From a virus: a stretch of 64,000 nucleotides of DNA. Below the pieces are notes generated by a model, which ran no database searches, had not been told where the DNA came from, and saw only the letters and a list, made by a program, of their open reading frames with translations. Where the stretch lies: positions 2,783-66,782 of the IMG/VR virus record IMGVR_UViG_3300028840_002073, one strand, 5' to 3'. Of this stretch, positions 5,318 to 54,600 are shown one piece after another (position 1 is the first letter of the stretch; each line of letters opens with the position of its first letter). A program made the translations under genes and the position numbers.

Positions 5318-5366
5318 TCCACCTCTGCCCACTGTACGTCCTCCTCTCACCCCCTTCGTCTGGGGG

Positions 5367-5397
5367 AAATCCCGGGGGGCGTGAGCTGCCCCCCGGG
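5367..5397 (-). terminator. GC-rich hairpin after the major capsid gene, possible partial terminator
   Basis: CCCGGGGGGC-N7-GCCCCCCGGG followed on the minus strand by only a short ATTT. Confidence 0.45.
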
Positions 5398-5415
5398 GGC
5401 ACTGACGTTAGACCT

Positions 5416-6669: not shown

Positions 6670-6684
6670 TGTCGTTCTCTAGGA

Positions 6685-9226: not shown

Positions 9227-9420
9227 CACCGTCTCTGGAGGCGCATCCTCATGGCCTCGCCGGCCTGCCCGGCGGTGGCCCGGCCCCGCCGGCCCTGGCG
9301 GGGCTTCGGTCGTCCCGCGCCCGGAGCTCGTGGCGCTCCGGAGGGCGGGGTGGTGCCGCCGGGCTGGTACGTGCCCTGCGGTCGGCCAGGTGGCATCCGG
9401 CGGTCGAGAGCTGGCTTCAT
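9226..9420 (-). CDS. Small Arg/Gly/Pro-rich hypothetical protein
   Basis: 64 aa, coupled to both neighbours. Confidence 0.55.
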   Translation of the reverse strand: MKPALDRRMPPGRPQGTYQPGGTTPPSGAPRAPGAGRPKPRQGRRGRATAGQAGEAMRMRLQRR

Positions 9421-9689
9421 CGCGTGTACTCCCTCAGTCCCTTCTCCATGCTCTTGGAGAGCGCCTGGGCCGCCTCGTTCGCCGACCGGCGCTTCGAGAT
9501 CCGCTTGCCCCGCTTCCGGGGATGCGACACGACCGGCCCCGGACGGGTCTGCTCGTCGTAGTAGCTCGTCTCGTTGGCCTCGAGACGGTCGTAGTCCTTC
9601 CGGTTGTGAGCCGGGGGGACCCGGTGGTCATCCGAGGGCAGGGAGGTGTGCCCCTTGTCCCTCATGTTTCCGTGCATCTTTCCCTTCAT
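9417..9689 (-). CDS. Small basic hypothetical protein
   Basis: 90 aa, AGGAGG RBS after the portal stop. Confidence 0.65.
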   Translation of the reverse strand: MKGKMHGNMRDKGHTSLPSDDHRVPPAHNRKDYDRLEANETSYYDEQTRPGPVVSHPRKRGKRISKRRSANEAAQALSKSMEKGLREYTR

Positions 9690-20481: not shown

Positions 20482-20923
20482 GCCCTACGAGAAGCCCCGT
20501 GTGAGCCGCCGGCGCCGGAGCCAGGGGGAGATCACCCTCTCGCGCCACATCGCGTGGGAGGGCCTCCCAGAGCCCGAGCTCGAGTACCACTGGGCCCGGG
20601 ACGAGGGCCGGCGCTTCCGTTTCGACTTCGCCTGGCCGAACCGACTGCTGGCCGTCGAGGTGGACGGGGGCAAGTTCATGATCCGCCGGTCCCGGAAGCA
20701 GCGGGGCCGCATGGTCGTCGTCGGCGCCCATAACCGGCGAGAGGACCTCGAGCGCCAGAACCTCGCCGCGCGCCTGGGCTGGACGGTGCTACGCTACACC
20801 CCCGACATGGTAGCGAAGGGGGAGGCGATCCGTGAGCTCAAGGCTATGCTGCTTCGTCCTGTGCTTGACGATGCTCCCGGCGTGCTCAGCGAAGATCCGG
20901 GTCCCGGTAGCAGCGGGGGCTGA
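20453..20923 (+). CDS. DUF559/Vsr-like endonuclease (possible resolvase)
   Basis: EY...RRFRFDFAWP...AVEVDGG...D.E..N.A..LGW.VLR motif. Confidence 0.75.
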   Translation: MMTPPTGPREPYEKPRVSRRRRSQGEITLSRHIAWEGLPEPELEYHWARDEGRRFRFDFAWPNRLLAVEVDGGKFMIRRSRKQRGRMVVVGAHNRREDLERQNLAARLGWTVLRYTPDMVAKGEAIRELKAMLLRPVLDDAPGVLSEDPGPGSSGG

Positions 20924-21182
20924 CCTCCTCACCACCGAGATGGCCCTCCAGCGTGGCTTCGTGGAGGGTAACCCCCTGGTCCCGGAGACTCCCGCCGGCC
21001 GGGCAGCCTTCAAGGTGGCCGGCGCCGGCCTCATCCTGGTCATCAGCCATGAGCTCCGGGAGCGGGGGCACCCGAAGATGGCGGGCTTCCTCGAGTGGAC
21101 CGCGACCATCCTGTGGGGCGGGGCCGCGGCCTGGAACTCCTACCTGATGGCTACTGGAGGGTCGGGTGGAGCGGGTGAATGA
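20832..21182 (+). CDS. Small membrane protein (DUF5658-like)
   Basis: D..TT..AL..G..E.NP motif with hydrophobic helices. Confidence 0.55.
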   Translation: MSSRLCCFVLCLTMLPACSAKIRVPVAAGADLLTTEMALQRGFVEGNPLVPETPAGRAAFKVAGAGLILVISHELRERGHPKMAGFLEWTATILWGGAAAWNSYLMATGGSGGAGE

Positions 21183-32186: not shown

Positions 32187-32614
32187 CTACTTCGGGCCCG
32201 TGATCGTCTCGCCGTCGCGCGAGGGCCCGAGGACCGTGGTGTTGGAGCTGAACTTGCCCCAGAAGGCCACCACCAGAGCGGTGAAGATCCCGCTCCACTC
32301 GTTTCCGGTCACGACCCCGTCCGCCAGGGCCAGTTGCAGCGCCGGGGCCGCGGCCCCGATCCCGTACAGCAGCGACACGACCAGCTTCTTGACCAACATG
32401 GACACCTCCAGGGGGCGCCAGGCCCCCGTCCTCTGTTTCAGCCACCAGATCACGACCCTGATGACCAGCGGCAGCCGAATCTCACCCGGCCTTCGGCCGT
32501 GTTTCCGCTCCGTGATCTTGCGAGCTCGCCTCCAGGCCTCGAGCGGCGTGAGGCCCCGCAGGTTGATGAGGTGCATCCGCCTGGCGTCGAAGTGGGCGTC
32601 CCACTCGTCCTGGG

Positions 32615-32618
<4 letters not shown>
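32187..32618 (-). CDS. Holin-like two-TM protein; internal start at 32399
   Basis: ATGA-coupled start at 32618; second ATG at 32399 with GGAGGTG SD; two TM helices around DGVVT..EW. Confidence 0.5.
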
Positions 32619-33379
<761 letters not shown>

Positions 33380-33388
33380 GTCGTCCTC

Positions 33389-35458
33389 CTACCAGAACTT
33401 CCCTTCGCCCGCCGCGTAGTCCTCGGCCATGCCTTCCGGCCCGATGTCCCGCGACCAGATCTTGATCTCGTCGACGACATGGTCTTCCTGGCCGACCCCT
33501 ACAGTGAACTGGTTGGAGGAGTCAGCGAGTCCACCATCGACTCCAGTACCACAGACCGTGTCGATGCAGGCGTAGGCAGTCGTGCCTGTGTAGCGACCGC
33601 AGGCGTGATGCCATGAGTTGAGCGTCGCATTCCCAGCCACGGCGGACACAATGCTGCCGTCGCCGACGATGAACTCAACTCGCCCCGCAGGGCTATCCCC
33701 GGTCCGGAGAATCCACCCAACGCTGGTCGAATACTCCCTCGCAATGTTGTTGTCGGTCGTGAAGTTCCGCCCATTGACCCAGGCGCAAACCGAGAACGGC
33801 CCGGCGGACCCGAACGGGCTCGTTGCGTTAGACAGGTACGAGTTATCTCCGTCGTCGAGTCGGACCCCCATCCCGCTGTCCGGCAGCTCCACCAGACCGG
33901 CGGCCTGGGTGGGAGTATTGACTCCTGTCAGATCGTTCGACCCGATGGCGTCCTCGTAGGGTCCGCCAGCCTCGGACATTGGCCAGCAGGAGACGAGAGC
34001 CACCTTGTCTGCCGTTGTGAGTTCACTACACGACTTGCCCTTACCACCGTTGTACAAAGACGATCGAATTGAGGCGTCAGGAATTCCAGTGTCGTAGTAG
34101 AAAACGGGCCCAATGACTCCATCGCTATAGTTGGTTCCATACGTCCCAACTGTGAACGCTCCTGAGCCAGTGTTTGATGTGGCGAATGTTCCAGCGCTGT
34201 CCCTGATTGTAGTATCTGCATTCCGCTCCAGGTGGACTTTATCGTCTCCTGCACCGTCCCACCATGCACATACGAATGTCCGTGTGCCATTGGCCAGGAA
34301 CGCAGAGCCAGAACTCACTGCCAAACCAGTTCCGCCACTGTCTGCGAAGTTGGCAGTGAGCACTCCAGCGCTGGAGGTAAATAGGTGGAAATCGCTGGTA
34401 GAACCAATGCCAGTCCATTTGGAAATCAAGTAGTCGTTACTTGCCATCGTCTCTGGACGAATCCAGAAGCAGAATCCACGGCCAATGGCATCTCCATCGA
34501 ACGAGGAGTTGTCGTTAACGTAGGCATACTGGCTGCTATCATTCTCGAAGTCTGCCGCATACCCCTTCGCCCCACCAGTTGGGGTAGGGGTGTTCACAGC
34601 CGAGAGGTCGTAGGCGTCCCCGTACTCGACCAGGGGATCAGACGCCTCCAGGGTCCCGGTAGCGGTCCCGTTCGCCCCGGAGATCGAGTCGGTGAGCCCC
34701 CAGGTCGAGAGGTCCATCGAATAGCAGGTGGTGGCGGTGGTGTTCTGCTCAACCCACTCGCAGTCGCGCCCAGCCCCAGAGTTGTAGAGGTCGGAGGCGG
34801 GAGGCTCACCGTCGATGAAGGTGACGATCTGGTCCACCTTTCCCACGAAATCCGGCCCAGCCGCGTTGGCCCCGATCCGGAAGTCCGCAGACGAGTTCGG
34901 GGCGTCGTAGTCCATGTCGCCCGAGTCGATGAAGTAGCCACCCCCGTTGACGGAAACCCGTGCCTTTCTGGTCGGGTCGTAGAAGTAGCCGCACATGAAC
35001 GTCTTGGCCCCGGGAGTGAACGGAGCACTCACCTCCGTCGTTGTGTCCCCATCGATCCCCCGCTCGTAGCGCACCCAGACGACGTTCGTCCCAGTGGTGA
35101 ATGACAGCTCGACGTCGATGTAGCCGCCCTTGAACAGAATCTTCTGGTCGTTCCCCACGTCGTCGAACCAGACACAGGCTGACAACCCCTGGCCGCCCGT
35201 GTGGTTGAAAGCCTCGTGGTCGGGCACAGAGACGTAGTCCCCCGAGGAGAACGTCGCTGACTCTGCCCGGTTGTGGAACGCCGAATCCCAGCCCATGTTG
35301 TCGGGGTCGTTGAACGTGTAGTAGGCAGCGAGGTTGGACCAGATGGGGGGCCAGGAGTCCCCCGCCATGTCCACGGCGCCGTCGTCGGGCTGGGACTCGT
35401 ACACCTGACCGCACACCGGGACGGCCAGGAGGAGGAGCGCGGCCAAGAGCTTCTTCAT
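33389..35458 (-). CDS. Signal-peptide, multi-LamG (concanavalin A-like) protein
   Basis: MKKLLAALLLLAVPVCG|Q; three LamG-like repeats (F.G.VDQ, G.IGP, VDE..IW.R...Y..G.G). Confidence 0.75.
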   Translation of the reverse strand: MKKLLAALLLLAVPVCGQVYESQPDDGAVDMAGDSWPPIWSNLAAYYTFNDPDNMGWDSAFHNRAESATFSSGDYVSVPDHEAFNHTGGQGLSACVWFDDVGNDQKILFKGGYIDVELSFTTGTNVVWVRYERGIDGDTTTEVSAPFTPGAKTFMCGYFYDPTRKARVSVNGGGYFIDSGDMDYDAPNSSADFRIGANAAGPDFVGKVDQIVTFIDGEPPASDLYNSGAGRDCEWVEQNTTATTCYSMDLSTWGLTDSISGANGTATGTLEASDPLVEYGDAYDLSAVNTPTPTGGAKGYAADFENDSSQYAYVNDNSSFDGDAIGRGFCFWIRPETMASNDYLISKWTGIGSTSDFHLFTSSAGVLTANFADSGGTGLAVSSGSAFLANGTRTFVCAWWDGAGDDKVHLERNADTTIRDSAGTFATSNTGSGAFTVGTYGTNYSDGVIGPVFYYDTGIPDASIRSSLYNGGKGKSCSELTTADKVALVSCWPMSEAGGPYEDAIGSNDLTGVNTPTQAAGLVELPDSGMGVRLDDGDNSYLSNATSPFGSAGPFSVCAWVNGRNFTTDNNIAREYSTSVGWILRTGDSPAGRVEFIVGDGSIVSAVAGNATLNSWHHACGRYTGTTAYACIDTVCGTGVDGGLADSSNQFTVGVGQEDHVVDEIKIWSRDIGPEGMAEDYAAGEGKFW

Positions 35459-35934
35459 GGGAGCCTCACAGTCCTCTGGGCGGTGGGTGGCTGCTCCAGC
35501 TTCCAATGCCAGTTGAGCACCGTAGGCGTGCCGAGGGAACAGTCCACGTTGGCCTCGAAGGTCACCTGATTCGTCCCGGTGGTGAAGACGACGTCCCCAG
35601 ACTGGTAGAACCCCGCGCTGCCCTGGTCCGCGTAGTCGCTCCCACTGTCCACGTAGCAGCCCAGCGACCCGGCATCGTTGTAGCAGGAGATGTAGTAGTC
35701 GGTGGTGAGGATGCGGATGTCGGTCGCGTTGAGGCACTCCGTCGTCGTGAGGAGCCTCCCGCCGAGGAAGGAGTCCGCCGGGATCTCGACGATCATGAAC
35801 TCCGTGTCCACGGACTCCGTCACCGCCGTGACGCCGTAGCTGATTGCTGCAGCCCCCGGCCCCGAAGGCGGCGGGAACGTCTGCCCCAGGAGCAGGAGCG
35901 GCGAGAGTAGCGCGAGAATCAGTAGCTTCTTCAT
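35455..35934 (-). CDS. Signal-peptide beta-sandwich protein
   Basis: MKKLLILALLSPLLLLG|QTFPPPSG; 4 Cys. Confidence 0.7.
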   Translation of the reverse strand: MKKLLILALLSPLLLLGQTFPPPSGPGAAAISYGVTAVTESVDTEFMIVEIPADSFLGGRLLTTTECLNATDIRILTTDYYISCYNDAGSLGCYVDSGSDYADQGSAGFYQSGDVVFTTGTNQVTFEANVDCSLGTPTVLNWHWKLEQPPTAQRTVRLP

Positions 35935-37929
35935 CTCACCCTCACGGAATGGTCGCCAGTGCGTACCAGGCGTAGGTGTCGGACGAGTTCTTCGCGCACA
36001 CCTCGAAGGTGTCGGCTACCCCAGCACCCCCCTGGTCCCTCCACAGCACGCCCCGGATGGTGGAGTCGCATGTCGGCTTGGTCCCAGAGTCGGATACCAC
36101 CGGGCCTTGAGGCTTGATGATGAGGCGATTGGATTCGGTCTGCTGGGTTGAACCCGAACCAAGGGCTGATCCTGTCCTCAGGTAGATCCACCCAGGAACC
36201 CCTGCACCAGTCCCGAACCCTCCACGGATGACTACAGCGCCCCCGTCGTAGTCGGTGTTCCCGGCTGCCGAATCGACACCCATCCAACTAGACAGCGATG
36301 GCGTCGAGTAGCCGTTGACGTCTACCCCTCCGATGTTCACGTAGCCCTGAGCCCCGTGGGCGAAGAACGCTCCCTGGAGCGTGTTGAGGGACGAACCGGA
36401 TGCTGCTCCCCCAGGAGCGATGGTCAGCGAGATGTTTCCTCCAGCAGCCGTACCCGTCCCGACCCCACTCCGGAGGTAGGTGCCCGTCGAGGCGGTGTCG
36501 GTTCCACTGGCCCGCTTCCCCTGAAGGATGATGTGGTCCGAGGAATCCCAGAGCCCTGCCGTGGTGTTGTCAGTGAACGAGTAGGAGGGTCCAGTGTCAG
36601 CACCGTCCGCCTGGAGGAACGGGACCGTCGCGGTGACGTCGGCCTCGTCAATGGTCATCCGAGTCGTGGCAGTTTGCTGGGTGGTGCCACTCCCGAGGGT
36701 GGTACCAGTTTGCAGGCGAATCACGCCTGGGGCTGCCGCCCCTGTAGACAGTCCACCTCTCAGGTACAGCTTCCCCGCCTCTATATCGGTGACACTTGCC
36801 GCCCTGTCCGATGCGGCAATAATGGTGTCTCCTACGAGGCTGTTCTCAATGGTGTCGAGGCCACCGATCGTCACCGTCCCGCCTGCGTTCGCAACAATCA
36901 CGGGCGAGTAGCTGTTTGGCGTACTGCCGCTGGTGGCTCCCTTCGGAGTGACCTGTACGTTGAACTCCCCGCCACCTCCAGTCCCGGTGGAGGCACCCCC
37001 CTGGAGGGCAACAGTGCCACCAGCCGCATCCGTCCCAGAGCCGTCTGCCCCAGACACGATGATCGCGCCTGACGCCCCCCACATCCCCGAGCTTGGTGCA
37101 GACGCAATCGAATAGGAAGGAGCGGTAGCAGAGCCGTCCGGACCCAGGAGCGGCCACGTCAGCCCGCCCGAGAAGTTGACCCCTGCGCCCCCGCCTGCGC
37201 CACGCGCCGCCAGGACAGGGCTCGCTGCCTCCACGTAGTCGTAGGAGATGAAGTCGGCGTCAGCAGCCGTGGTCTTGTAGGCAGTTGCCCCTGCTCCAGT
37301 CGTCCGCCCTGCCGTGGTCGGGATGTTCGTGGCCAGGGTGTCGGACCAGAGGAGCGTCCCAGTGTCGTCGTTCAGGCTGTAGGACACCGACGAGGCATCC
37401 GAGTTGACCGTGACCCGCCCGGTGTACCACGTCCCCGTGCTGATCGTGTAGGAGCTGGTGGTCGTGCTGCGGGTCCCGTTGTCGGCGGTCATCCCGTCGA
37501 GGGTGGTCCCGTCGATGTTCAGGTAGACCCCATCGGTCGGTTCCGCTGCAGTGAAGCTGTCCTGAAAGCCGAGGTGGGCAACGACGTCCGTCGCAGCGTC
37601 CACTTGGAAGACGATGACGAAGGCCTCGCCCCCTCCGATCAGGAAGCTGAAGCCGCCTACCTGCCAGTAGACGCCACCGTTGGCGTTGGAGTTGTTGCCG
37701 ACCTGCACGACACCCGGATGGGGAACCGTGCCGTCGATCTGGGTCTGGTTCCCGCTGTTGATAACCCCGGAGCCGAAGTGGGTCCCGGAGGTCCCAGTGA
37801 AGTCCCACCAGAGCACACGGGTGCCGTTGCCCCCCGAGGCCCCCTCCGGGGGGTAGACGACCTGAGCGAAGACAGGAACAGCCAGGAGTAGAAGGATCGC
37901 CAGTAGCTTCTTCATCTCACCCTCACGGA
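35920..37929. repeat. 29-bp identical direct repeats flanking the 657-aa gene (35920-35948, 37901-37929)
   Basis: CAGTAGCTTCTTCATCTCACCCTCACGGA = stop, RBS and MKKLL on the minus strand. Confidence 0.9.
35942..37915 (-). CDS. Signal-peptide tail-fibre-like Gly/Thr-rich protein
   Basis: MKKLLAILLLLAVPVFA|Q; repeated DG....PSYS and GG...L.GG.STG motifs; C-terminal PTC...RG...C...W module. Confidence 0.7.
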   Translation of the reverse strand: MKKLLAILLLLAVPVFAQVVYPPEGASGGNGTRVLWWDFTGTSGTHFGSGVINSGNQTQIDGTVPHPGVVQVGNNSNANGGVYWQVGGFSFLIGGGEAFVIVFQVDAATDVVAHLGFQDSFTAAEPTDGVYLNIDGTTLDGMTADNGTRSTTTSSYTISTGTWYTGRVTVNSDASSVSYSLNDDTGTLLWSDTLATNIPTTAGRTTGAGATAYKTTAADADFISYDYVEAASPVLAARGAGGGAGVNFSGGLTWPLLGPDGSATAPSYSIASAPSSGMWGASGAIIVSGADGSGTDAAGGTVALQGGASTGTGGGGEFNVQVTPKGATSGSTPNSYSPVIVANAGGTVTIGGLDTIENSLVGDTIIAASDRAASVTDIEAGKLYLRGGLSTGAAAPGVIRLQTGTTLGSGTTQQTATTRMTIDEADVTATVPFLQADGADTGPSYSFTDNTTAGLWDSSDHIILQGKRASGTDTASTGTYLRSGVGTGTAAGGNISLTIAPGGAASGSSLNTLQGAFFAHGAQGYVNIGGVDVNGYSTPSLSSWMGVDSAAGNTDYDGGAVVIRGGFGTGAGVPGWIYLRTGSALGSGSTQQTESNRLIIKPQGPVVSDSGTKPTCDSTIRGVLWRDQGGAGVADTFEVCAKNSSDTYAWYALATIP

Positions 37930-38420
37930 GTTTCCAGGGCCGTCCACCCCTTGTCAGGCGCAGGACCGAACAGCCCCCTCGCCTTCTCGTAGACCACCCC
38001 GTCGTACTGGATCCGGTAGGCTACCTGCACCCCTTCCCCACCGGAGTTCTTGAACGTGTTGGTCCGAAGCTGCACCGGACCCGTTGCGGGGAGGTCCACA
38101 CCCGAGAGCACCCAGGTGTCCCTCGTGTCGTCGTAGCAGTCACCGCACACACTTCCTACGAAGGGACCCGGATCGTCGTGCGTGACCGTGGCCAGCGCCG
38201 AGTCCGAGGGGTCCGTGTTCGGCAGCACCGTCGAACTCCACGTCGGGTGGCAGAGCCTCAGCGGGTTGCTCGCCACGCACGCCTGGAAGTCAGTCGTGAG
38301 GCTGGCCTCCTGCGTGTCCATCCAGGCATCCGCCTCGGCCTGGGCCTGCACCAGCGTGATCTGAGCACTGGCTGGCGCCGCCATCAGCACCAGCACAACG
38401 AGCAGCTTAGTGAACCGCAT
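37923..38420 (-). CDS. Signal-peptide hypothetical protein
   Basis: AGGAGG RBS; MRFTKLLVVLVLMAAPASA|Q. Confidence 0.7.
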   Translation of the reverse strand: MRFTKLLVVLVLMAAPASAQITLVQAQAEADAWMDTQEASLTTDFQACVASNPLRLCHPTWSSTVLPNTDPSDSALATVTHDDPGPFVGSVCGDCYDDTRDTWVLSGVDLPATGPVQLRTNTFKNSGGEGVQVAYRIQYDGVVYEKARGLFGPAPDKGWTALETP

Positions 38421-39867
38421 AGATCCTCCTGATCTCCGGCCTCTGGCTCCAAGCGAACCTCGGCCCCTCGAATATGAAGTCCCAGTACGCTGAGTAGAAG
38501 AAGCCTGCTCCAGAATTGTAGAGTTCGTCCAGCTCGGCAGTGGACAGGGCCCTTCGCCAGAGTGCGAGGTTGTCGAACTGCCCCAGCAAGGTGTTCGCAG
38601 AAGTGACCCCAAACTGAAAGCTGGGGTCCCCATCCGAGGCCCGCAGGGGATAAGTCATGACCTCGGACTCTACGGTTTCATCCGCACGGTGCCAGCAAGT
38701 ATTGGTGGCGCTGTCGTATCCACCAGCGACGAAGTGCCAGCGACCCTCGAACGCACCTATGGCCTGGTTGTAGGTATTCGCTTCAGTGTCGTAGCAGCGG
38801 GTCACGTTGTTGTAGTTCAGAATCGACAGCCCGCTGCTGACACCGACAGTCACCTGATACGAGGTGATCTCAGCCACCTCTCGGAACATCCAGTAGGAGT
38901 AGGAGAACGACTCGTCCTCCGCGAGATCGAAGACTGCATCTCCGAGAGTCATCGTCTCGTTGGTGCCTGAGTACCTGACCGCCATCCCCGAGTCGCTCTG
39001 CTCCACCAGCGCAGCAGCCCGTGTGGGGGTGTTCACCGCCGTCAGGTCGTTCGACCCAACAACGTCCTCGTAGGGCCCTCCATTCTCGGACAGGGGCCAG
39101 CAGGACTCCAGATTGGAGGTAGGTGCATCATCACACAGCAGCCCCTTCCCGCTGTTCCACAGGGTAGCCCTCGGGGGGATTCCACCCTTGTAGTAGAAGG
39201 TTCTGCCCTGCACGCCGTCCCAGTCCCCGCCAGGAGCCGCTGGAATCTCCAGATCGTTTGCGGTGTCGGCTGGGTAGTTGGTCAGGGCTGCGCCTGCCGT
39301 CGCCGTCTCGTTGTCTATGGAGATGTATGCCTTCTTGTCCGAGGAGTCGTACCAGAAGCAGGCGAAGTGCCGCTTCCCAACCGTCAAGTTGGTGGACGAC
39401 GTAGCCACACTCGTTCCCGACACAGAGTCGTAGATGATGGTCTGCGAGAGTGCAGTCTTGAACTGGATCAGGTACTCGTCCTGCTTGTAGACTGGCCGTC
39501 TACTTGTGGCATCGAGAGATTCGGGCCTCACCCAGGTGCAGAAGCCGAAGCTGGTGTTTGACCCCTGCGACACAGAAGCGTTGTCGGTGACGCTGGCGTA
39601 CTGATCGGAGTCGATCTCGAAGTCCGACGCATACCCGAGTCCTCCACCCGTCGCGGTCGGGGTGTTCACCTCGGTCAGGTCGTAGGTGCCGTCGCCGTTG
39701 TCCGCGCCCAGGTCGTCGGGATCGTTGAAGGTCCAGACCACTTCGGCGTCGTCGTAGACACCAGTCCCCCCAGCCTCGACCGGGTAGTAGATCGGCCCTT
39801 CACCGGGGTAGTCCTGAGCGACGAACGCACTGAGCGCGATCGCAAGGAGAAAGATCGCCGTTCTCAT
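38407..39867 (-). CDS. Signal-peptide, double-LamG protein (paralogue of 33389-35458)
   Basis: MRTAIFLLAIALSAFVA|Q; GQFDNLALWRRALS.AE..ELYNSG.G. Confidence 0.75.
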   Translation of the reverse strand: MRTAIFLLAIALSAFVAQDYPGEGPIYYPVEAGGTGVYDDAEVVWTFNDPDDLGADNGDGTYDLTEVNTPTATGGGLGYASDFEIDSDQYASVTDNASVSQGSNTSFGFCTWVRPESLDATSRRPVYKQDEYLIQFKTALSQTIIYDSVSGTSVATSSTNLTVGKRHFACFWYDSSDKKAYISIDNETATAGAALTNYPADTANDLEIPAAPGGDWDGVQGRTFYYKGGIPPRATLWNSGKGLLCDDAPTSNLESCWPLSENGGPYEDVVGSNDLTAVNTPTRAAALVEQSDSGMAVRYSGTNETMTLGDAVFDLAEDESFSYSYWMFREVAEITSYQVTVGVSSGLSILNYNNVTRCYDTEANTYNQAIGAFEGRWHFVAGGYDSATNTCWHRADETVESEVMTYPLRASDGDPSFQFGVTSANTLLGQFDNLALWRRALSTAELDELYNSGAGFFYSAYWDFIFEGPRFAWSQRPEIRRIYAVH

Positions 39868-39901
39868 CGGAGCCTCCCCTCGCCCAGGAGGAGAAATCGC
39901 T

Positions 39902-40663
39902 TCATGGCGTGACCGCGAGGGTTGCCGTAACGCTCTCACGGGTGCCCCCGTCGCTGGTGCTGTAGGCGAGCGAGATCCGGCACTCGGAGAAGGCATTGTG
40001 AGGGATCTTGTACGAGAGCCCCTGGCCGGTCGTGCTGAACTGGCAGACCGTTCCGCTCAGGGTGCCATCGCCGCAGTCGGAGCTCGGGCCCGGATAGACC
40101 CGAACGTCAGACGCACCCAGGGCCCCCTCCTTGCAGAAGTAGGCGACGTCCAGGCTGCCGAGGTCCCCGGCGTCGTACTGGACCGTCATCTGGACCGTCC
40201 TGTAGCCCGAGACGCGGATCCACCCGTCGTCACCACCAGTCCCGCAGTTCAGGGTCTTGTAGTAGTAGGCGTTGTAGTCGGCGTCGTCGGTGGTGTTGGC
40301 GACGGTGATGTTGTTGTTGTTGGTCTTCACCGTGACGTAGGTTTCGACGTCCGGCACCACGGGGTCGGCGCTGGTGTCGCCGTCGCTGGACCGCAAGATG
40401 ATGGCGTCGCCAACCGACACGTCGGCGAAGGCATCGTTCGTTCCGTTGTCGATGATCGTCCCGGCGGTCTTCTGGATGTCGTAGTCGGGTGCGATGACCT
40501 TGAAGCCGGTCGTGTCGAACGGATCACCGTTCCTGCCGGTCACGGTGCAGTAGGTGGCGGTGGTCGAGGCGACGTCGTATCCGAAGGCGAAGTTCGCCTC
40601 CTGGGCCGTTGCTGGAATGGCCAGGGCCAGTACGAGGGCCGCCAGCACGAGAATCCTTCTCAT
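39902..40663 (-). CDS. Signal-peptide virion-like beta protein
   Basis: ATGA-coupled; MRRILVLAALVLALAIPATA|Q; 6 Cys. Confidence 0.7.
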   Translation of the reverse strand: MRRILVLAALVLALAIPATAQEANFAFGYDVASTTATYCTVTGRNGDPFDTTGFKVIAPDYDIQKTAGTIIDNGTNDAFADVSVGDAIILRSSDGDTSADPVVPDVETYVTVKTNNNNITVANTTDDADYNAYYYKTLNCGTGGDDGWIRVSGYRTVQMTVQYDAGDLGSLDVAYFCKEGALGASDVRVYPGPSSDCGDGTLSGTVCQFSTTGQGLSYKIPHNAFSECRISLAYSTSDGGTRESVTATLAVTP

Positions 40664-40926
40664 CGTCCTGCTCCTTTCGCGGCCAGGGCCGCCTTGCTCT
40701 TTCCGTGTCCGTTCAGAATCGCCTCGAGATAGGCGAGTCTCTGCACGATCCCATGGTGCTGGTCGTTGTTGGTCCGCTCGTAGCGGATCACCCGCTTCGC
40801 CATCGCCCGATCCCGGAGCTCGGCCTTGTCGAGTGCCGTCATGATGTGTGAGTACCCGATCCTTCCGAAGGCCCCGAATAGAACCCCGAATGCGCCAATG
40901 ATGATTGCTGCCGCTGATCCATCCAC
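40660..40926 (-). CDS. Single-TM protein next to the endolysin (holin/antiholin candidate)
   Basis: N-terminal TM plus coiled-coil tail. Confidence 0.5.
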   Translation of the reverse strand: MDGSAAAIIIGAFGVLFGAFGRIGYSHIMTALDKAELRDRAMAKRVIRYERTNNDQHHGIVQRLAYLEAILNGHGKSKAALAAKGAGR

Positions 40927-41405
40927 TAGTAAGCCCTCCCGAATTGAAAGTGCATGGCGTCAGGCACACGCCATCTCCCCCCCCATGTCCACCCGAGGCG
41001 CTCGAAGACCCGGACGACTTCTCGCGGCATATCGAAGTCGACCTGGCCGAGGCGATTCGTCCCGGCGTTGAAGTCGAGAGCGGCCCCGAAGGCGTGCATC
41101 GAGAGCTTGCTCGAGCCGCGCTTCGGTCGCCAGGTGTAGCCGCCGTCGTAGGTCTTGAGGAGGCCCCAGGCCCCTTCTTCCATGAGGGCCAGGAACGTCT
41201 CCTCGACCAGCCCAGCGATCTTGTTGTGGACGCGCACGCGGATTGCCTCGGTCCTGGGGGCCCACCCGAGTGGCAGCGGGTAGGGCATCGGAACCAGGAC
41301 CATCTGCGACTCCCATGCTGGGTGGGCGGACCCATCGGCGCGGATCCAGAGGTTCGGGTTGCCGTAGAAGGCGGTGAGCTCTTTCAGGCCTCGTGGAGAC
41401 TTCAT
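40926..41405 (-). CDS. Endolysin, peptidase M15 family
   Basis: R...S.H..G.A.D...WGG.W..PD.MHFQ zinc-peptidase motifs. Confidence 0.88.
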   Translation of the reverse strand: MKSPRGLKELTAFYGNPNLWIRADGSAHPAWESQMVLVPMPYPLPLGWAPRTEAIRVRVHNKIAGLVEETFLALMEEGAWGLLKTYDGGYTWRPKRGSSKLSMHAFGAALDFNAGTNRLGQVDFDMPREVVRVFERLGWTWGGRWRVPDAMHFQFGRAY

Positions 41406-47324: not shown

Positions 47325-48697
47325 CAGGCCGTTCTCCTCACGTAGGCCAGGATGGTCATGTGCGTCGGGCTTCCCGTCGCCGTCTGCACCATGGCTTCCA
47401 TGATGTCGCCGGCCGAGTAGCTGGCGTTCTGGATCGTGCCGCCGTCGTAGAGCGTGTCCACCGCGGCCAGGGACAGGTCGCTGGACAGGTGGTTCGAGGT
47501 GAAGTTCTTTCTCATGTTGACCGTCGCCCCGGTCCCGTCACGGCGCAGGGCCTTGACGTTGATGACCTCGCAGGCCCAGGGGGCCACGAAACAGATGGCC
47601 TGGTCGGGGCTGCTGATCCCGGCCGCGTTCTTCACCGTCGAGCCCGCGGGGAGGATGAGGTTCGTCCCTCCCGGGACCCCGATCTGCGGGAGCCACAGCT
47701 CCCGGCCGTCCCCGCCCGCGTAGAGGATCTCGTGCTCCCCGTCCGACAGGGCCCGCTGGTGCCAGTGCAGCGCGTCGACCTGGCCGTCGAGCTCGTCCGT
47801 CTCGGCCCCGTACTCGTGGGCGCCGACCATGAAGCTGTCCGTCCCGGTGTAGGGAGTCTCGCTGGCGCAGGACGTCGAGTAGGTGGTGCCGTCGTTCACC
47901 CGGATGTTGATGGTGCTCGCGGCGTGGTCGTACCAGAACCGGACGAAGTACCAAGTTCCCGTGGCAGGAGTGACGTCCTCATCCTCGACGGTGTAGGTCG
48001 TCGGCGTGGTCGATCCGAGGGTGGCGACGAAGGCGCCGGCGGTGGAGTCGTAGTAGAGCCCGTACTCCAGATTGGAGGCCGAGTCCTTGGCGACGATCCA
48101 TTGGTCGGCGGCGATGGAGTCGAGCTTGACCCAGAGCGCCACCGAGTAGTCGAACTCACCCTGCTGGAGGGCCGTGCCGTCCGCGACGTAGAGGTTCTCG
48201 CTCCCGGTGAAGTCGGCGGCGTCCCCGATCTTCCCGGTGGCGCTGGCGGTGGCGCCGTTCTCCGTGAGGATGTGCTCACCCATCGACGGGTAGCGGTCGC
48301 CACTCGCCTCCTCGAAGCGCCAGGCGGCGACCAGATCCTCGTAGAGATCGAAGTAGGGATGGACGTGGGTCGCGCGCGCGAGCTCCAGGCTGGCGCCCTC
48401 GTCGGCCTCGTACCCCAGCTCCACGGGGATCCCGGTCGAGATTGGGTGGAAGTGGGTGCCCGGCGACCACCCATCGGTGGGCTCTCCCACCGCGGCCTCC
48501 AGGCCGGCTTGGATCGTCGTCGGCAGGCCCTCGTAGCCCCCGGCTGGCAGGCCGGCGTCGTCGGAGTTCTGGAGGTAGCGCAGGAAGCGGTTGAGCTCCC
48601 CGAAGACCGCGTTCAGGGACTTCTCGAGTTTCTTGTCCTCGCACCTGATCCGGTCGACCAGGTAGGGGGCGTGAATCGAGTGTCGCCGGAAGGGCAT
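47324..48697 (-). CDS. LamG-domain virion protein (no signal peptide)
   Basis: LVAAW.FEE.SG.R, GK.G.A.DF, DGQVD......RALS..E...LY.GG.G. Confidence 0.7.
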   Translation of the reverse strand: MPFRRHSIHAPYLVDRIRCEDKKLEKSLNAVFGELNRFLRYLQNSDDAGLPAGGYEGLPTTIQAGLEAAVGEPTDGWSPGTHFHPISTGIPVELGYEADEGASLELARATHVHPYFDLYEDLVAAWRFEEASGDRYPSMGEHILTENGATASATGKIGDAADFTGSENLYVADGTALQQGEFDYSVALWVKLDSIAADQWIVAKDSASNLEYGLYYDSTAGAFVATLGSTTPTTYTVEDEDVTPATGTWYFVRFWYDHAASTINIRVNDGTTYSTSCASETPYTGTDSFMVGAHEYGAETDELDGQVDALHWHQRALSDGEHEILYAGGDGRELWLPQIGVPGGTNLILPAGSTVKNAAGISSPDQAICFVAPWACEVINVKALRRDGTGATVNMRKNFTSNHLSSDLSLAAVDTLYDGGTIQNASYSAGDIMEAMVQTATGSPTHMTILAYVRRTA

Positions 48698-51600
48698 CAG
48701 CGCCTCTTGAGCTCGTATTCCCCCGTAGCGATCCGGGCCATGATACTACGGTGGATCTCCCGCCTCGCCGCGTCGTGCGCGAAGCGGTAGATGCGCTTCA
48801 GGAACTCCGTCTTGGCGTAGATGTCCATGCCGTCCCAGTCGGAGTTGGAGGTGAGGTTCCGGGCGAAGGCAGAGGCCCTGGCCGCGTAGGCCGCGTAGAG
48901 CTCGCGCTCCCTCTGATTCAGGGCGATCTTCCGACCCATGGCCCCGGGGATGGACATGAAGCGGGGCGGGGCGTTCGGGGTGTAGCCCGTCTCGAGGAAC
49001 AGCCGCTCCAGGTTGCGCTCCGGGCCCGCCTCCGGGGAGTACCGGAACGGCGAGGCGAAGCGGCTGAACGGGTCCTCGCCGCGCTGGATCGGCTCGCCCG
49101 TCCCGGTCAGCTTCGGCGGGAGGTTCTGGGAGAACCAGGGCACCCGGGCGATGAGCGTCGAGGAGATGTCGTCAGTCTGCCGGATCGTCGGGTCGATGGA
49201 TCGGGCCGCGGAGGCCAGGAGGTTCGGGATCATGGCCCCGACCATCCGCTTGAAGAACCGGGCCCCGTACCGGTCCGGGTCGCCCACCGCTTCGGCCGCG
49301 CTGACCATGCCCTCCAGGTAGGTCTTCCCGGTGATGTTGTTCATGACCGAGTAGTGGAGCTTGTCCCAGATGTCCCCGGCGATCCTCTCGTCGGTGGCCT
49401 CGGCCAGGTCGGCGGCGAAACCGAGGCTCGTGGCGATGGGCTCGATGCGGGCCATGGACACCCAGGTGTTCCCGATCTTGATGGCGTAGGGCTGCTTGCC
49501 GGTGGCGAGCCAGTTCCGGCGCTCGTCCCACTCGGCGGGCCCGCCCCCGGTGATGAGCCCGTCCTTCGCCATCATGTAGACGCCCGCGCTGATGAACGAC
49601 CCGAGGATCCCCTGGGCCAGGCGGTCGGAGGCCTCGCCGCCCTTCAGCTTCCCGCTCCGGATGTTCTGGACCGTCCGGGCTAGGCCGACCGGTGTGCGCC
49701 GCACAGCCTGTATCAAGATGCGTTCGGGGGTCCGAATGAAGGGCACCACGAAGGTCAGCCAGGGATACTTCCCGCGGAGGAGCTGGATGTACTTCGAGAA
49801 CAGGGTCGTCTCGTCGCGGAAGGTCGAGACGTCGGCGGCGTGCTCCATCTCCTTCTTGATCTTCCCGAGCTCCTTGTTCCGCAGGAGGAACGACACGTCC
49901 TCCTTCGACACCTCGCGTGGGTCGATCTGGCGCCGCGCCTCGATCTCGAGGTACTTGTCGAGGCTCTGGTTGATCTCCTTCATTCGGTTGAGGAGCTGCT
50001 CCCGGGTCCAGCCCTGCCCCCGGCTCTCCAGGGCGGCCTTGCGGAAGACCTGGGCCGACCGCTCAGCCGAGGCCGCGGCGTACTTCGCGCCGACGTCGAG
50101 GGCCTCCATGATCCGGCCCGGGGTCCGGACGAGCTTCCCGAAGCGCCCGGGGATGGCGGGGGGCCGGTACTCGCCCTTCACGCCGAAGCCGATGTCCTCT
50201 CTGACGAGGGCGGTCTTGGCGAGCTTGAACGCTGAGACGAGGCCGAACCGGTACTTCCCCAGGGCCCTGGCCGCCTCCATCATCTCGCCGGGCACGCGCT
50301 CCTGGGGCCGGGCCTCTCCGGTGAGGAACCGCTCGATGGCCTGGCGCACCCCGCGTTGCTCGAGGGCGGACGCGATCCCGCGCTCCGGCGTCCGGAGGAG
50401 GGCCTCGTGGACGAGGTTGCCGGTGATGTTCGCGCCCTGCGTGGCGGGCCCGGACAGGATGGAGTTGATCCAGTACTCGAGGAACTGGTCGAGGCGGGTC
50501 GGCTTGTGGATCTGGCGGTAGATTTGGTTCACCGCCGCCATGTCCTGCTTGTGGATCGCCGCGGCGAGTTCGTCGATGAGCTGATCGCCGGGCTTCCGGC
50601 CCCGCATCATCCGCTGGAGAAACCGCTCCTCCGGCGTCAGGGACTCGATCCACATTCGGTGTGCGGCCAGGGCCCGGCCTGCCTCGGAGCCGGCGGCCAC
50701 GGTGGCGTACTGGATGCCGATGGCCTTCTGCAGGGCGGCGTGCATCTCCCGCTCCAGCTCCAGGGCCGTCTGCTGGCGGGCCGCCTTCTCCTGTGGGGTC
50801 TGGGCCTCGGCCACGGCGGTCTTGGCGTCGCGGTAGGCCTGCTGCTTGTTGATGAAGTCGATCCCGGCTTCCTGCCGCAGGATGCGCCCGGCGATGATCT
50901 CGTAGTCGGTGAGTGCCCCCTTCTCCTTCAGGGCCTTGACGAACTCGCGCTCAGTCCACCCGAGCTCGAGGGCCATCTCCTTGGCTTCCCTCCAGGACCG
51001 GTAGGAGCGGGCCTCGCCGAACTTCGACTCCAGGGCGTGGGCGCTCTGAGTGATGAAGTCGCGGATGCCCCGCTCGTTGGAGATCCGGGTGATGTTGGTC
51101 GAGAGTCCGATCCGCTCGCCCTTCCAGTTGAACTCGGGCGGCTTCCCGGTGCCGGGGTCCGGGACCATCATGGACTCCAGCCACTTCAGCATCGCCCGGA
51201 GGTCCTTCTTCGAGGGCTCCGGGATGGGCCGGATCGGGCCTCGTGGGCGTCCATCCGGGGTCCGAACGCCGGTCACGTCGGTGGGCTTCCCGCGCTTGAT
51301 CGTCTCTCGGTACTGCGGTCGGGCGATGCTCTGGAGGTACTCCCAGACCCGCTGCAGGAGGGTTCGGTCCTTCACGTCGCCCATGCTGATGAGCCACCTC
51401 GAGAACGACCGGATGCCCCTGGCGAAGCTGTCGGCGCCCAGGACCACAGCGTCCCAGAACCAGCGGGGGTCGAAGCCCATGGCGGCCTCGCCCCACCGGG
51501 CCCTCATGCGCGCCCGCGCGTAGGCCACCCGCCGGTTCCACCACCTGGTCCCCGGCCCCTCCCGGTCCGGCCAGTTGAACGGTCCGGGCGGCTCGTCCCC

Positions 51601-54600
51601 GTCGTCGCCGCCGCCGCCGGCCGGTGGAACCCCGCGGCCCCTGCGCCGGTAGGGTTGGCGCTCCTCGGCAACGAATATCTCTGGCCTGACGCTGCGCTGC
51701 TCCAGCCGGGGGAGGGCCTGCCAGAATGGGATGCCCTGGCCCATCGCCCCGACTCTGGTCCGCAGAGTCTCAGCGGCTACTGGATCGGTGGAGACGACCC
51801 CGTCGAGAGCGTAGCCGTCCTTGATGAGGTCGGACGCGGTCCGGAGGACGCTGAGATTCCCGGGGTCGATGATGAGCACGGCGTTGTCTGCCCCGATGGC
51901 CCGGCCCTGGTTGATGATCCAGCGCCGCATTCGGTGGCTCTCGTTGAAGAAGTCCACCGGGACAGAGGCGATCTGACGGATGCGGTACTCGACGTCGAGG
52001 AACATGATGAGCGGTTGGTCTGCGGCCTGTGTCTCGGCAGCTCTCAGAGCGAGAGCCTCTGGTACAGCTTCCTGGAGGGCTTCCGTATGGGCCAGCTTCC
52101 GCTTGTAGATGTTGGCGCGGTCCTTGACCATGAACGGGTCGGGGAGTCGTCGGATCGACGGGGCGTACTTGATCCACTCGTGCGCCCTGGCCTTGAGCCG
52201 CTGTGGGTTCGTGAGCTCCATGGACAAGCTCATCGCCTGCTCGTCCGTGATGTCTCCCTCGACGTAGGCGTGGCGCAGGCCCATGAACTGCGCGAGGGAG
52301 CGCCAATTCGCCTTGAAGTCGCCCTTGTGCGGGTCCATCACGGTGAACGTTCCGTGGTCGACGACGACCTGGCCGAGGAACCGATCCCCGAACAGATGCA
52401 GCAGGACGCCCGTGATGTTGATGTCTGAGACGGAGGCCACCGGGTTGCCGGAGGGATGGTTGTGGAAGGCGTAGAACCCTTCGGCGCCGACCGCGTCGAG
52501 CTTCTCGCCGAGCCGCTGCTTCCAGTCGGTCCAGTCATCGGGTCGCGGCGTCGCCGGCGCTGCGGCCGGCAGCCGGATCGTCTCGGCCCAGCTCTCCAGG
52601 ATCTCGCCGTCCTTGACCGGGAAGATGTAGGACGTCTCGAAAGCCGGGTTGCGGAGGAGCTGGCCCAACAGCCCGAGGTCTTCGATGGAGTTGACCTTCA
52701 TGCCGTCGAGGTCGAACTGGCCTTCCTTGAAGAAGGCCTCCCGGATCGAAGCTCCGAGATGCTTCGGCGTATCGGAGGCCCCGAGGTCCTCGAGCGCAAT
52801 CCCGGTCCCGATCCGGTAGGGCCTGAGCTGTCCAGGAGGTCCTACGACTCGCTCGACCCAGTCGAGTCCGATTTCGGCGAGGTCTTCCGGGTCGTGGGAC
52901 TCGTCTCTGTCTCCGAGGAAGTCGAGGGCGATCTGGACCGGATCTCTGCCGCTTTCCGCAAGAGCTGACAGAGCATCATCGACCCGTCCTCCCGGTCCCG
53001 CAACGTCCCCGAAGTAGGACCGGAAACGTCGAATCGCGGTCGCATGTCTCTGGAGGACTGTGTCATAGGTCATCACCTCCTCGGGTGGGATGCTGTCTCC
53101 CCTGATCTGCTGGGCGGCCCACACGGCCGAGGCCACCTCGTCGCCGGTCCAGCCGAGTTCATCGGCGGCCTGGCGCAGGAGGTCCTGAATGAACTTCACC
53201 TGACTCCCGTTCGGGGAGTTGCCCTTCTGGAGATTCTCTCTCCCGAGGACGAACCGGGCGATGTGGCGGTCCACGGCGATGGCGTCGAAGCCCAGCTCCG
53301 CGCGGGTGTAGGGGCGGATCTTCTGGCCTCGGACCCCGTTGGAGCTCCGCAGTCGCTCCAGGTTGCGGCGGACCGCCGGCAGGTAGCCCTTGAAGGGCTC
53401 CCCGAGCCGCATCTGCTGGTAGGCCTTCACGGCGAGGGCCACGTTGGCCCGCACGTCCGCGGCCTGGGAGGTGATCCCGAGGATGGCCCGGAACAGCATC
53501 GCGTCGTTGCCGAACAGGCTGGCGAGGGTCTTGTCGTGCCGGACGTGGAAGTCGCGCCAGTCCTTGAACTCGTCCAGCGTGGCGAACAGCTCGTCCATGC
53601 CGATGGCGGCGTCGGTGCCGTACTTCCGGCGCGGGGCCTCGACGCCGAAGAAGGACGGGCGCTCGCCCACGGCCCAGGAGAACAGCCCTCGGAACGCCGC
53701 GGTGTTCCCGGCCGCGGGGCGGAAGGGGTGGAACTTCCCGTAGATCGTGTCGGTCGACGTCTTGATCTGGAAGCTGTTGCGTGGATCGCCCACCGGCGCG
53801 GTGAAGACGGCTCCGAGCTTCTTCAGCTTGTTGTAGATGAACCGGTTTTGCTTGATCGAGACGAGAGGCTTGGTCTGCCGGCGGCCCTTGTACTTGTTGG
53901 CCCCGCTGGCGAGCTGGTTCATCTCGAACAGCACGTCGTCCATCTCCGCGGGCTCGGCCACGATCTTCGGGTCTGGCTTCTCCCGCTTCGGGAGCTCCTC
54001 GCCCGGTCCCGCGTAGGAGACGTAGCCGGCGGGACCGATGTCGCCCTCGGGTGGGATGAGTCGCCCGGTGAACGGCTCGCCGTCGCTCGTCTCAATCGTG
54101 AAGTCGCCGTACTTCCCGAGGGTGTCGTGGCGGTCGTCGAAGATCGCGCCGAGGGCCTGGAGGCGTCGCCTGATGAAGCGGAACTGCTTGAGCGAGACGA
54201 CGTCCTGGCCGCGGTTGCGGATGAGCGTCTCGAGGTGGCTTCGCGCGATGTGCTGGAGCGGAGACTGCTTCTTCCGGTCGGCGCCGGGGTCGGGCTGACC
54301 GGGGTCCCCGAACTCGCTCATCTCGCCGGGGTCCAGGAGCCCGACGTTGCCCGACACCTGGGCGCCGAGCATCTTCATCTTCGTCCCGATGATGGACTTG
54401 TTCCAGTCGTCTACCGCCTGGTCGGAGAACAGGTAGATCACCCGCCCCTGCGACTTCGTGGTGACGCGGTGGATCCGTCCGACCATCTGGACGTTGTTGA
54501 TCGAGTCGAAGGGGGCGGTAATGACGATCATCGTCCGGGGCCGGCTTCCGGTCCGGTCGTCCAGGTTGATCCCGGTCCCGCCTGCCTCCGGCGTGGCGAT

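Follow-up and report, generated by a model that had tools for sequence, protein, structure and literature searches.

A cassette of six predicted Sec-exported lectin- and fibre-like proteins with Gln at the putative cleavage site, next to the endolysin gene of a tailed phage

Six consecutive genes with export leaders

The virus of IMG/VR record IMGVR_UViG_3300028840_002073 is a tailed phage whose record is 66,782 bp long and carries direct terminal repeats of 144 bp; bases 2783-66782 of the record form the window, i.e., the whole 64,000-nucleotide stretch analysed here, to which positions refer unless another locus is named. At 33389-40663, six consecutive genes, designated g1 to g6, form a cassette that a first-pass annotation, made from the DNA letters alone, described as coding for Sec-exported tail-fibre- or LamG-like proteins with Gln directly after the signal peptide. 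The cytoplasm is regarded as the place where tail fibres and tailspikes fold and assemble. Cassette-type modules with export leaders recur across dozens of uncultured phages. The six genes of the window, with the putative cleavage site of each product marked by an arrow, are as follows.

33389-35458, minus strand: g1, 689 aa; three LamG_3 stretches, 12 mature Cys; leader 35408-35458, VCG↓Q
35455-35934, minus strand: g2, 159 aa; minimal 'fibre', 4 Cys; leader 35884-35934, LLG↓Q
35942-37915, minus strand: g3, 657 aa; fibre-like; leader 37865-37915, VFA↓Q
37923-38420, minus strand: g4, 165 aa; 4 Cys, fold without assignment; leader 38364-38420, ASA↓Q
38407-39867, minus strand: g5, 486 aa; two LamG_3 stretches, 6 Cys; leader 39817-39867, FVA↓Q
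39902-40663, minus strand: g6, 253 aa; two-part beta jelly-roll; leader codons 1-20 (40604-40663), ATA↓Q

Leaders were judged by a rule-based scan and by their conservation. All six genes have an ATG start located 5-10 nt behind a GAGG, GGAG or AGGAGG Shine-Dalgarno site, and all six products begin with Met, Lys/Arg, a hydrophobic core of 10-14 residues, small residues at positions -3 and -1, and Gln at +1. This n-h-c anatomy, which is conserved in relatives, bears out the six signal peptides predicted by the first-pass annotation, and each of the six Gln(+1) sites that it had named was recovered. The short aromatic-Pro-Gly motifs that it had also pointed out are present in g2, g3 and g5, the mature start of the latter being QDYPGEG..YYPVEAGG. 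Six Gln(+1) residues in six genes would be expected by chance with a probability of about 1e-8 at a 5% background, but are unremarkable under a host Q-rule, i.e., a general preference for Gln at the start of mature exported proteins. When the complete 66.8-kb genome was searched crudely for leaders, no further one of the signal-peptidase-I type turned up in a convincing coding frame; the remaining leaders were of the lipoprotein type only (32615-33379, 15191-16477 and 20832-21182). The type IX secretion C-terminal sorting domain and PEP-CTERM were absent from the general Pfam/NCBIfam scan listings, which were not searches aimed at them.

The mature proteins g1 to g6 contain 12, 4, 2, 4, 6 and 6 cysteines, respectively, all even numbers. 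Their density is 1.3-2.8 per 100 residues in five of the six proteins and 0.3 in g3, compared with at most 1.3 in 15 other proteins of the phage. Wherever the window and the sister phage fragment L002 can be aligned (g2, g4, g6 and the C-terminal domain of g3), the cysteines are invariant. Even and invariant mature cysteines are therefore compatible with disulfides formed outside the cytoplasm. Taken from sequence features, export, cleavage before Gln and oxidative folding of the six products appear very probable.

Among convincing coding frames of the phage, the aromatic-Pro-Pro motif is confined to the starts of the mature g2 and g3 proteins, with the exception of one copy in the portal protein. 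This copy (portal gene 9699-12476, minus strand; EEFPPPPDGG at residue ~821) lies in a Pro-rich C-terminal tail and is probably due to chance.

Conservation of the leaders in relatives

The sister fragment L002 carries homologues of g6, g3, g2, g1 and g4, and all five have a leader followed by Gln(+1); these leaders have diverged in sequence from those of the window while the Gln ending has been kept. Over nine window-versus-relative pairs, identity amounts to 68/152 in the leaders versus 163/270 in the first 30 mature residues, a contrast that is sharp for g2 (5/16 in the leader versus 26/30 in the mature part) and g4 (7/18 versus 25/30) and weak for g3 and g1. Gln(+1) is retained in all nine pairs; taken by itself, the phage locus L086 has it in 4/4 homologues.

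The g6 family comprises 44 members, several of them on contigs of 62-67 kb. A leader is present in all 42 members that have an N-terminus, with Gln(+1) in 33 and Ala, Asp, Glu or Ser in the other nine; in a relative of the same phage family with a GC content of 0.55, for example, the g6 homologue has the predicted cleavage site VHA↓DE. As the leader occurs in all and the +1 residue varies by lineage, the leader is therefore the constant element, and Gln(+1) follows the host. The homologues of g1 have a leader in 4/4 cases, and the 30 profile matches of g2 divide into 17 with a leader and Gln, 2 with a leader and another +1 residue, and 11 that are leaderless or fragments. Contigs of phage size carry the close homologues of g6, none of which was found in cellular genomes; this agrees with the first-pass view of the cassette as a phage system with leaders.

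A trivial explanation is that no cleavage takes place and the leaders anchor the proteins in the membrane, or that they are artefacts of annotation, and that the cassette codes for ordinary cytoplasmic fibres with a hydrophobic N-terminus or mis-called starts. It draws some support from 8 of the 44 g6 homologues, which are called with ~70-130 extra residues ahead of the hydrophobic segment, probably because their starts are over-called. We consider it highly improbable, since cores of 10-14 residues are too short for a stable transmembrane helix, every ATG of the cassette has its Shine-Dalgarno site, the small -3/-1 residues and the Gln boundary recur over dozens of homologues, and the cysteines are even in number and conserved.

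Searches in other collections returned little. Neither megablast with the cassette nor tblastn with g6 and g3 produced a match among 50,697 GenBank phage records, and a locus scan of IMG/VR with P0069 yielded nothing. Five relatives of the major capsid protein (MCP) in IMG/VR showed no g6, g1 or endolysin, a result that is uninformative on cassette conservation, as these are fragments 18-54% complete.

Domains and folds of the mature proteins

None of the six proteins matched a PHROG family, and none of the five scanned against NCBIfam (g2 to g6) had a match. Pfam identified LamG_3 (PF13385; gathering cut-off 27.6 bits) in three stretches of g1 (E 1.1e-17, 65 bits) and two stretches of g5 (E 2e-12, 47.9 bits), which confirms the LamG domains proposed in the first pass; g1 and g5 are paralogues with 34% identity. 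In g3, the leader is followed by the QVVYPPEG motif, a lectin-like domain (PF22237, SO2946-like C-terminal domain; residues 66-226, E 1.2e-27, 97.3 bits, cut-off 27), two Gly-rich repeats, and a 45-aa C-terminal domain with two cysteines. The repeats carry the PSYS motif, and two copies of the DG..A.PSYS fibre repeat noted in the first pass are visible in g3. A weak direct match of g3 to PDB 2a5z was also obtained (E 0.012).

The domains of g3 are shuffled among related proteins. P0003 has the leader, the Gln and the N-terminal domain of g3 (70% identity) and ends in a pectate-lyase domain (PF12708), while P0002 shares the C-terminal part of g3 (68% identity). PF22237 is located at the C-terminus of P0004 to P0006, and P0007, which is leaderless, joins a beta-helix to a C-terminal domain of the g3 type.

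The g2 protein consists of the leader, a disordered QTFPPPSGPGAAA peptide and a four-Cys beta-sandwich. In its structural model (predicted local distance difference test score, pLDDT, 86.6), the N-terminus is disordered up to residue 29, and the beta-sandwich follows. The six best structural matches of this sandwich are C-terminal domains of phage tailspikes, of a tail fibre and of a baseplate protein, with Z 8.5-10.1 over 111-135 residues (VIA), and the next-best rows have Z 6.4 and 5.9. Foldseek likewise retrieved C-terminal domains of tailspikes, with probability 1.00 and E 9e-5 to 8e-3. Members of the g2 family are fibre-like proteins of 229-863 aa with this domain at the C-terminal end, and many begin with a leader, Gln, and x-Tyr/Phe-Pro-Pro-Asp/Glu; the family architecture is a leader, a short conserved N-peptide, a variable shaft and a variable tip. 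Where a folded N-terminal adaptor would stand, the fibre-like proteins of the cassette have only the short conserved N-peptide.

The g6 model (AF2, pLDDT 94.7) is a two-part jelly-roll with an inserted second domain and six conserved cysteines. Its structural matches include GOLD domains (Z 10.1), XepA (Z 9.5) and YomS (Z 9.1), and phage cement proteins, PRD1 P5 and TNF/C1q knobs reach about Z 7; a Foldseek search against PDB and BFVD gave only TM scores of 0.15-0.34 over the whole model. These jelly-roll matches are best taken as a lead suggested by the model, not as a family assignment. The g4 protein is 78% identical to its L002 homologue, and its matches in the ESM Atlas had scores of at most 0.85, with only weak MAM and Cleaved_Adhesin leads.

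LamG arrays, a lectin-like domain, fibre repeats, a modelled fold of the tailspike type and jelly-rolls indicate that the bodies of the mature proteins are receptor-binding-type modules. The receptor-binding character suggested by the first-pass annotation is thus upheld by the Pfam domains and by the g2 fold.

These features make it necessary to weigh the possibility that the six proteins are receptor-binding or decoration fibres of the virion that are exported by Sec, mature in the periplasm and dock at lysis on particles assembled in the cytoplasm; the first-pass annotation had offered such a virion system and, as its alternative, a phage-encoded adhesin system of the host surface. Export would then serve disulfide formation and the pyroglutamate cap, the holin and the endolysin would merge the two compartments, and docking would occur via the mature N-peptide (Q-x-Tyr/Phe-Pro-Pro-x-Gly) or the g6 protein. 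The g2 fold, which is that of podoviral tailspike C-terminal domains, the leader/N-peptide/shaft/tip architecture of the g2 family, the exchange of modules seen in P0003 and P0002, as is usual in receptor-binding proteins, and the confinement of the aromatic-Pro-Pro motif to the mature N-termini of g2 and g3 (apart from the portal-tail copy) are all in its favour. Against it, the putative anchor would be a peptide of ~10 residues in place of a folded adaptor domain, and none of the six proteins matches a PHROG family. To our knowledge, no tailed phage exports its fibres by Sec, and among the matches listed in a literature search, no title or abstract dealt with Sec-exported tailed-phage fibres. 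Other candidate tail proteins of the phage, moreover, are leaderless, e.g., a 457-aa LamG protein that matches a 'virion structural protein' PHROG.

Genome setting and synteny

The genome codes for a large terminase (TerL), a portal protein and an HK97-type MCP, and also contains RecE/RecT-like and DnaA_N/DUF1376 replication genes; its GC content is ~65%, and no tRNA gene was found. Together with the neighbouring endolysin gene, the terminase, portal and capsid genes support the late, lysis-proximal setting in a tailed phage assigned in the first pass. No integrase or repressor was seen among the ~40 phage proteins scanned, a set that is not exhaustive. A reading of the cassette as host genes or a prophage flank was ruled out, as the record spans a complete viral genome, with 144-bp repeats at its termini. 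The genes that flank the cassette are as follows.

32187-32684, minus strand: 165-aa open reading frame (ORF); two hydrophobic segments in the C-terminal half, no PHROG match
32615-33379, minus strand: predicted Pro-rich lipoprotein, 254 aa; Cys20 behind a hydrophobic leader, no family match (Pfam, PHROG)
40660-40926, minus strand: 88-aa transmembrane (TM) protein; one N-terminal hydrophobic segment and a charged tail, holin- or i-spanin-like by sequence
40926-41405, minus strand: endolysin, Peptidase_M15_4; PF13539 E 2.3e-16, phrog_17001 endolysin E 1.4e-12

The order is thus endolysin, 88-aa TM protein, g6 to g1, lipoprotein and the 165-aa protein with hydrophobic segments. The first-pass annotation placed the cassette between the endolysin and a holin-like gene; the endolysin side of this bracket stands, and the layout is corrected in that the TM protein lies between the endolysin and g6 and the lipoprotein lies beyond g1. 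The 'holin-like gene' is possibly the 165-aa ORF. Neither the 88-aa protein nor the 254-aa lipoprotein matched a family; typical o-spanins are much smaller than the latter. Neighbouring genes overlap by their start and stop codons at three junctions (88-aa TM gene/g6, g5/g4 and g2/g1), and the endolysin and TM ORFs share one base; the cassette genes are therefore part of the endolysin transcription unit.

Third codon positions of the cassette have a GC content (GC3) of 0.75-0.89 and those of the TM and endolysin genes one of 0.72-0.84, whereas the head, tail and giant-protein genes reach 0.89-0.95. The lower GC3 of the cassette points to another origin or to expression at another level.

A synteny search in related phages, which the first-pass annotation had proposed, located the cassette in six contexts, with the following gene orders.

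Window: endolysin, TM, g6-g5-g4-g3-g2-g1, lipoprotein
L002: head genes, g6-g3-g2-g1-g4, TM, TM, endolysin, ..., lipoprotein
L088: head genes, g6, LamG, g3-like, TM, endolysin, ..., two lipoproteins
L095: head genes, g6, fibre, TM, ..., endolysin, lipoprotein
L086: portal, ..., TM, g6-g3-g2-g1, lipoprotein, ..., scaffold
L094: lipoprotein, TM, g6, g2-like, LamG, TM, lipoprotein, ..., TerL

In every context, the cassette opens with g6. It adjoins small TM proteins and lipoproteins in all six contexts and the endolysin in four, while its position relative to the head genes and TerL varies. Small TM genes similar to that of the 88-aa protein flank the cassette in L002, L086, L088, L094 and L095, and the lipoproteins of L002, L086, L088 and L094 have Pro-rich N-termini that look similar by eye to that of the 254-aa lipoprotein. 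For the docking of exported fibres on virions, this arrangement has two sides. The cassette occupies the usual tail-fibre slot in L002, L088, L089 and L095 and adjoins the portal gene in L003 and L086, and g6 behaves as a core gene of phage contigs of 62-67 kb, as a virion component would; on the other hand, the cassette moves together with membrane and lipoprotein genes and not with fixed structural neighbours.

The variable position of the cassette, its GC3 below that of the structural genes, hinting at a foreign origin, and the nature of the cellular homologues of the g3 C-terminal domain (surface or pilus-tip proteins, which in Patescibacteria have pilin-type N-termini) could also suggest a host-benefit 'moron', i.e., adhesins or biofilm lectins of lysogenic conversion expressed from a prophage. 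We regard this as quite improbable. The scanned proteins include no integrase or repressor, g6 and MCP are essentially absent from 401 Acidobacteriota genomes, where no prophage relatives were detected, translational coupling ties the genes to the endolysin operon, and g6 is conserved in the phage family and is not sporadic cargo.

Several other features of these genomes were recorded. In L086, a GroES-like gene of 96 aa (9380-9670), recognised from sequence only, is located directly upstream of the TM-g6 cassette. The unrelated phage L003 has two g3-like leader-Gln genes adjoining its portal gene, and its large terminase (4258-6747) has an intein-like insert that looks by eye like Hint/LAGLIDADG. 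In the window, two more predicted lipoproteins are found outside the cassette (15191-16477, minus strand; 20832-21182, plus strand), neither with a family match. A 4552-aa ORF (48697-62355, minus strand) has ResIII/SNF2-type helicase and RadC-like matches and contains no cysteine, where ~30 would be expected at the Cys density of other phage proteins; its product may be an ejected 'polyvalent' protein.

Gln(+1) and the candidate host lineage

The Q-rule, under which Gln at +1 of signal-peptidase-I substrates is cyclised by glutaminyl cyclase, is called exclusive to Bacteroidetes by Bochtler 2018 (PMC5837995) and Szczesniak 2023 (PMC10653852), where the taxa covered are Bacteroidetes, Chlorobi, Spirochaetes, Chlamydiae and Cyanobacteria. 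A literature search found no work joining Acidobacteria, glutaminyl cyclase and signal peptide.

A domain of the cassette leads to the Acidobacteriota. The C-terminal domain of g3 was found at 33 loci in species-representative genomes, 15 of which are from Acidobacteriota, and 12 of these 15 have a leader and Gln. Among the Acidobacteriota loci, L018 and L019 are phage-like contigs, and L030 and L037 are cellular glycosyltransferase/exopolysaccharide (EPS) loci. In the Patescibacteria loci L013, L015, L021, L023 and L036, the 45-residue two-Cys domain of the g3 type is located on proteins with type-IV-pilin-like N-termini.

Leaders were then collected with a scan blind to the +1 residue from two samples, a Bryobacteraceae chromosome (400 kb scanned) and a Solibacteraceae metagenome-assembled genome (MAG; 200 kb), with Longimicrobiaceae, Patescibacteria and other flanks as controls. 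Gln(+1) followed 13 of 39 Bryobacteraceae and 9 of 38 Solibacteraceae leaders (22/77), compared with 1 of 30 in the controls (Fisher p 0.003). The cleavage-site scan misplaces many sites, and 22/77 is therefore an underestimate; by eye, about two thirds of the convincing Acidobacteriota leaders end in Gln. The strong excess of Gln behind predicted cleavage sites concerns Bryobacteraceae, Solibacteraceae and Terriglobia MAGs (loci L046-L075 and L018-L040). A simpler statistic, the first polar residue after the core, did not separate the taxa and was superseded by the cleavage-site scan. A plant-type glutaminyl cyclase (PF05096) was present in all five candidate-host genomes examined.

Gln(+1) in the cassette is best read as the general rule of the host lineage for exported proteins and not as specific to the cassette. 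The first-pass reading of Gln(+1) as a Q-rule signature therefore fits, but not as a hallmark of the cassette itself, because the Acidobacteriota samples show a general bias. The likeness to the Bacteroidetes Q-rule lies in the leader followed by Gln in 6/6 genes, the plant-type cyclase in candidate hosts and the presumed role in protecting the N-terminus. The difference is that Acidobacteria are not among the taxa covered in those two papers (PMC5837995, PMC10653852), and that this phage has 65% GC, Shine-Dalgarno sites, and domain relatives and a Q-bias in Acidobacteriota. The rule thus seems, as far as sequence can tell, to extend beyond Bacteroidetes to Acidobacteriota, and the host is most likely an Acidobacteriota bacterium. 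At locus L028, two leader proteins start with Trp-Val-Pro-Pro-x-Gly after the predicted cleavage; the aromatic-Pro-Pro-x-Gly N-terminus therefore recurs outside Q-rule lineages. Should an Acidobacteriota Gln(+1) rule hold, it would offer an inexpensive way to predict the hosts of soil phages from sequence and would widen the known bacterial range of pyroglutamate capping.

A possible role at the cell envelope

The reading that we favour, at a probability of about 45%, is that the six proteins act on the envelope glycans of the infected cell at lysis and are most likely not incorporated into virions. On this reading, the 66.8-kb tailed phage, which looks virulent, would express the six genes late, as an 'envelope module'. 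Sec would carry each product over the inner membrane, host signal peptidase I would cut ahead of Gln, and a periplasmic glutaminyl cyclase of the host would convert this Gln into pyroglutamate, capping the N-terminus against aminopeptidases, while the proteins would fold with disulfide bonds outside the cytoplasm. With their LamG arrays, ConA-like domain, Gly-rich repeats and tailspike C-terminal domain, the mature products would be glycan-binding proteins or adhesins that, together with the flanking small membrane protein and the lipoprotein, act on envelope polysaccharide at lysis. Binding or masking of the receptor glycan or EPS would allow the progeny to escape without being lost on debris, and superinfection would be hindered. 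We favour this role because of the envelope-gene neighbourhood of the cassette, the precedents of XepA and WceF discussed below, the homologues in EPS loci and the leaderless structural candidates in the same phage.

Several points weigh against an action at the envelope. No enzymatic domain was found in any of the six proteins (Pfam; NCBIfam for g2 to g6), and export and cleavage are themselves predictions from sequence. At 7.3 kb, the cassette takes up 11% of the genome, a large outlay if its function is accessory. The location of the cassette between the head/neck and lysis genes in L002, L088, L089 and L095 is that expected of virion receptor-binding proteins (RBPs), and the constant first place of g6, the domain swaps between g3 and P0003/P0002 and the tailspike-type fold of g2 are also virion RBP traits. 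The match of g6 to XepA concerns a common jelly-roll, and GOLD, TNF/C1q and cement proteins score similarly. In the search for a host, MCP and g6 each matched only 1 of 401 sampled Acidobacteriota genomes (E 8.7e-9 and 8.3e-6, respectively), single weak matches that therefore reveal no prophage relatives among these genomes; Shine-Dalgarno use (6/20 and 10/20 in the Acidobacteriota samples) and GC content do not discriminate between hosts.

In view of the evidence on both sides given above, we consider it rather unlikely that the cassette proteins are virion fibres that dock at lysis. The more general proposition derived from it, a two-compartment assembly in tailed phages of soil diderms with pGlu-x-Tyr/Phe-Pro-Pro-x-Gly as a docking tag, is likewise doubtful.

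Each outcome would have consequences. If the proteins act at the envelope, phages would routinely deliver RBP-type lectins to the envelope of the host, as a new kind of device for exit or exclusion. If they are virion fibres, some tailed phages complete their virions with periplasm-matured fibres, a pathway that is not known for Caudoviricetes. Both bear on the annotation of RBPs and 'auxiliary' lectin genes in soil viromes, where ConA-like lectins are described as abundant (PMC8522061).

Comparison with known systems

Q-rule genes of undetermined function have been described in phages of Porphyromonas gingivalis (Matrishin 2023, PMC10367356), whose authors propose that they modify the host envelope. 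The likeness to the present cassette is that these are phage genes of this kind with leaders that obey the Q-rule of the host. The difference is that five scattered genes of temperate phages of a Bacteroidetes host are described there (PMC10367356), whereas here a conserved six-gene cassette of the RBP type is found, and no integrase was seen in the scans.

XepA of PBSX is a late, exported protein that is absent from particles and is coded in a lytic cassette near the holin and lysin genes (PMC6834076). In the structural comparison with XepA and SPbeta YomS (PDB 6i56, 6i5o), g6 aligns with the C-terminal domain of XepA over 105 residues with Z 9.5 and a root-mean-square deviation of 3.4 Å, and with YomS at Z 9.1. 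XepA differs in being pentameric and in belonging to a Gram-positive host, its fold is a common jelly-roll/C2-like one without sequence similarity to g6, and g6 in turn has an inserted second domain and six cysteines.

The fold of g2 resembles the C-terminal domains of podoviral tailspikes, such as those of the Acinetobacter phages Fri1 (gp49), APK09 (gp48), AM24 and P1 and the Klebsiella phage Kp9 (gp42). These capsule depolymerases differ in being leaderless, cytoplasm-assembled trimeric beta-helix spikes that end in that domain, whereas in g2 the domain stands alone behind a leader and a short peptide, has four conserved cysteines and shows 5-9% identity.

A cellular parallel is WceF of Pantoea stewartii, an exported tailspike-like trimer that acts on the bacterium's own exopolysaccharide and is coded in the EPS locus (PMC7949094). 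The g2 protein matches the C-terminal part of WceF (PDB 6tgf) with Z 6.4, and the Bryobacterales homologues of the g3 C-terminal domain are likewise found in glycosyltransferase loci. WceF differs in being cellular and in having a Tat signal and a catalytic beta-helix (PMC7949094). The window proteins have Sec-type leaders and no beta-helix, and only their relative P0003 has PF12708.

T5 Llp, T4 Sp and Imm, and P1 Sim are phage proteins sent to the envelope of the infected cell, where they block receptors or incoming phage. Their mechanism is the same as that proposed here for the cassette; such receptor-masking and superinfection-exclusion envelope proteins are treated in PMC9586334. Each of them is one small protein whose target is a protein receptor or lysozyme, whereas the cassette codes for six large lectin- or fibre-like proteins.

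The only well-known model of an exported phage RBP is pIII of the filamentous Ff phages, an adhesin of the virion that has a Sec leader and disulfides formed in the periplasm. In contrast to the tailed phage studied here, Ff is a membrane-extruded, non-lytic, tail-less virus, and pIII is unrelated to the cassette proteins in sequence and in the type of particle to which it belongs.

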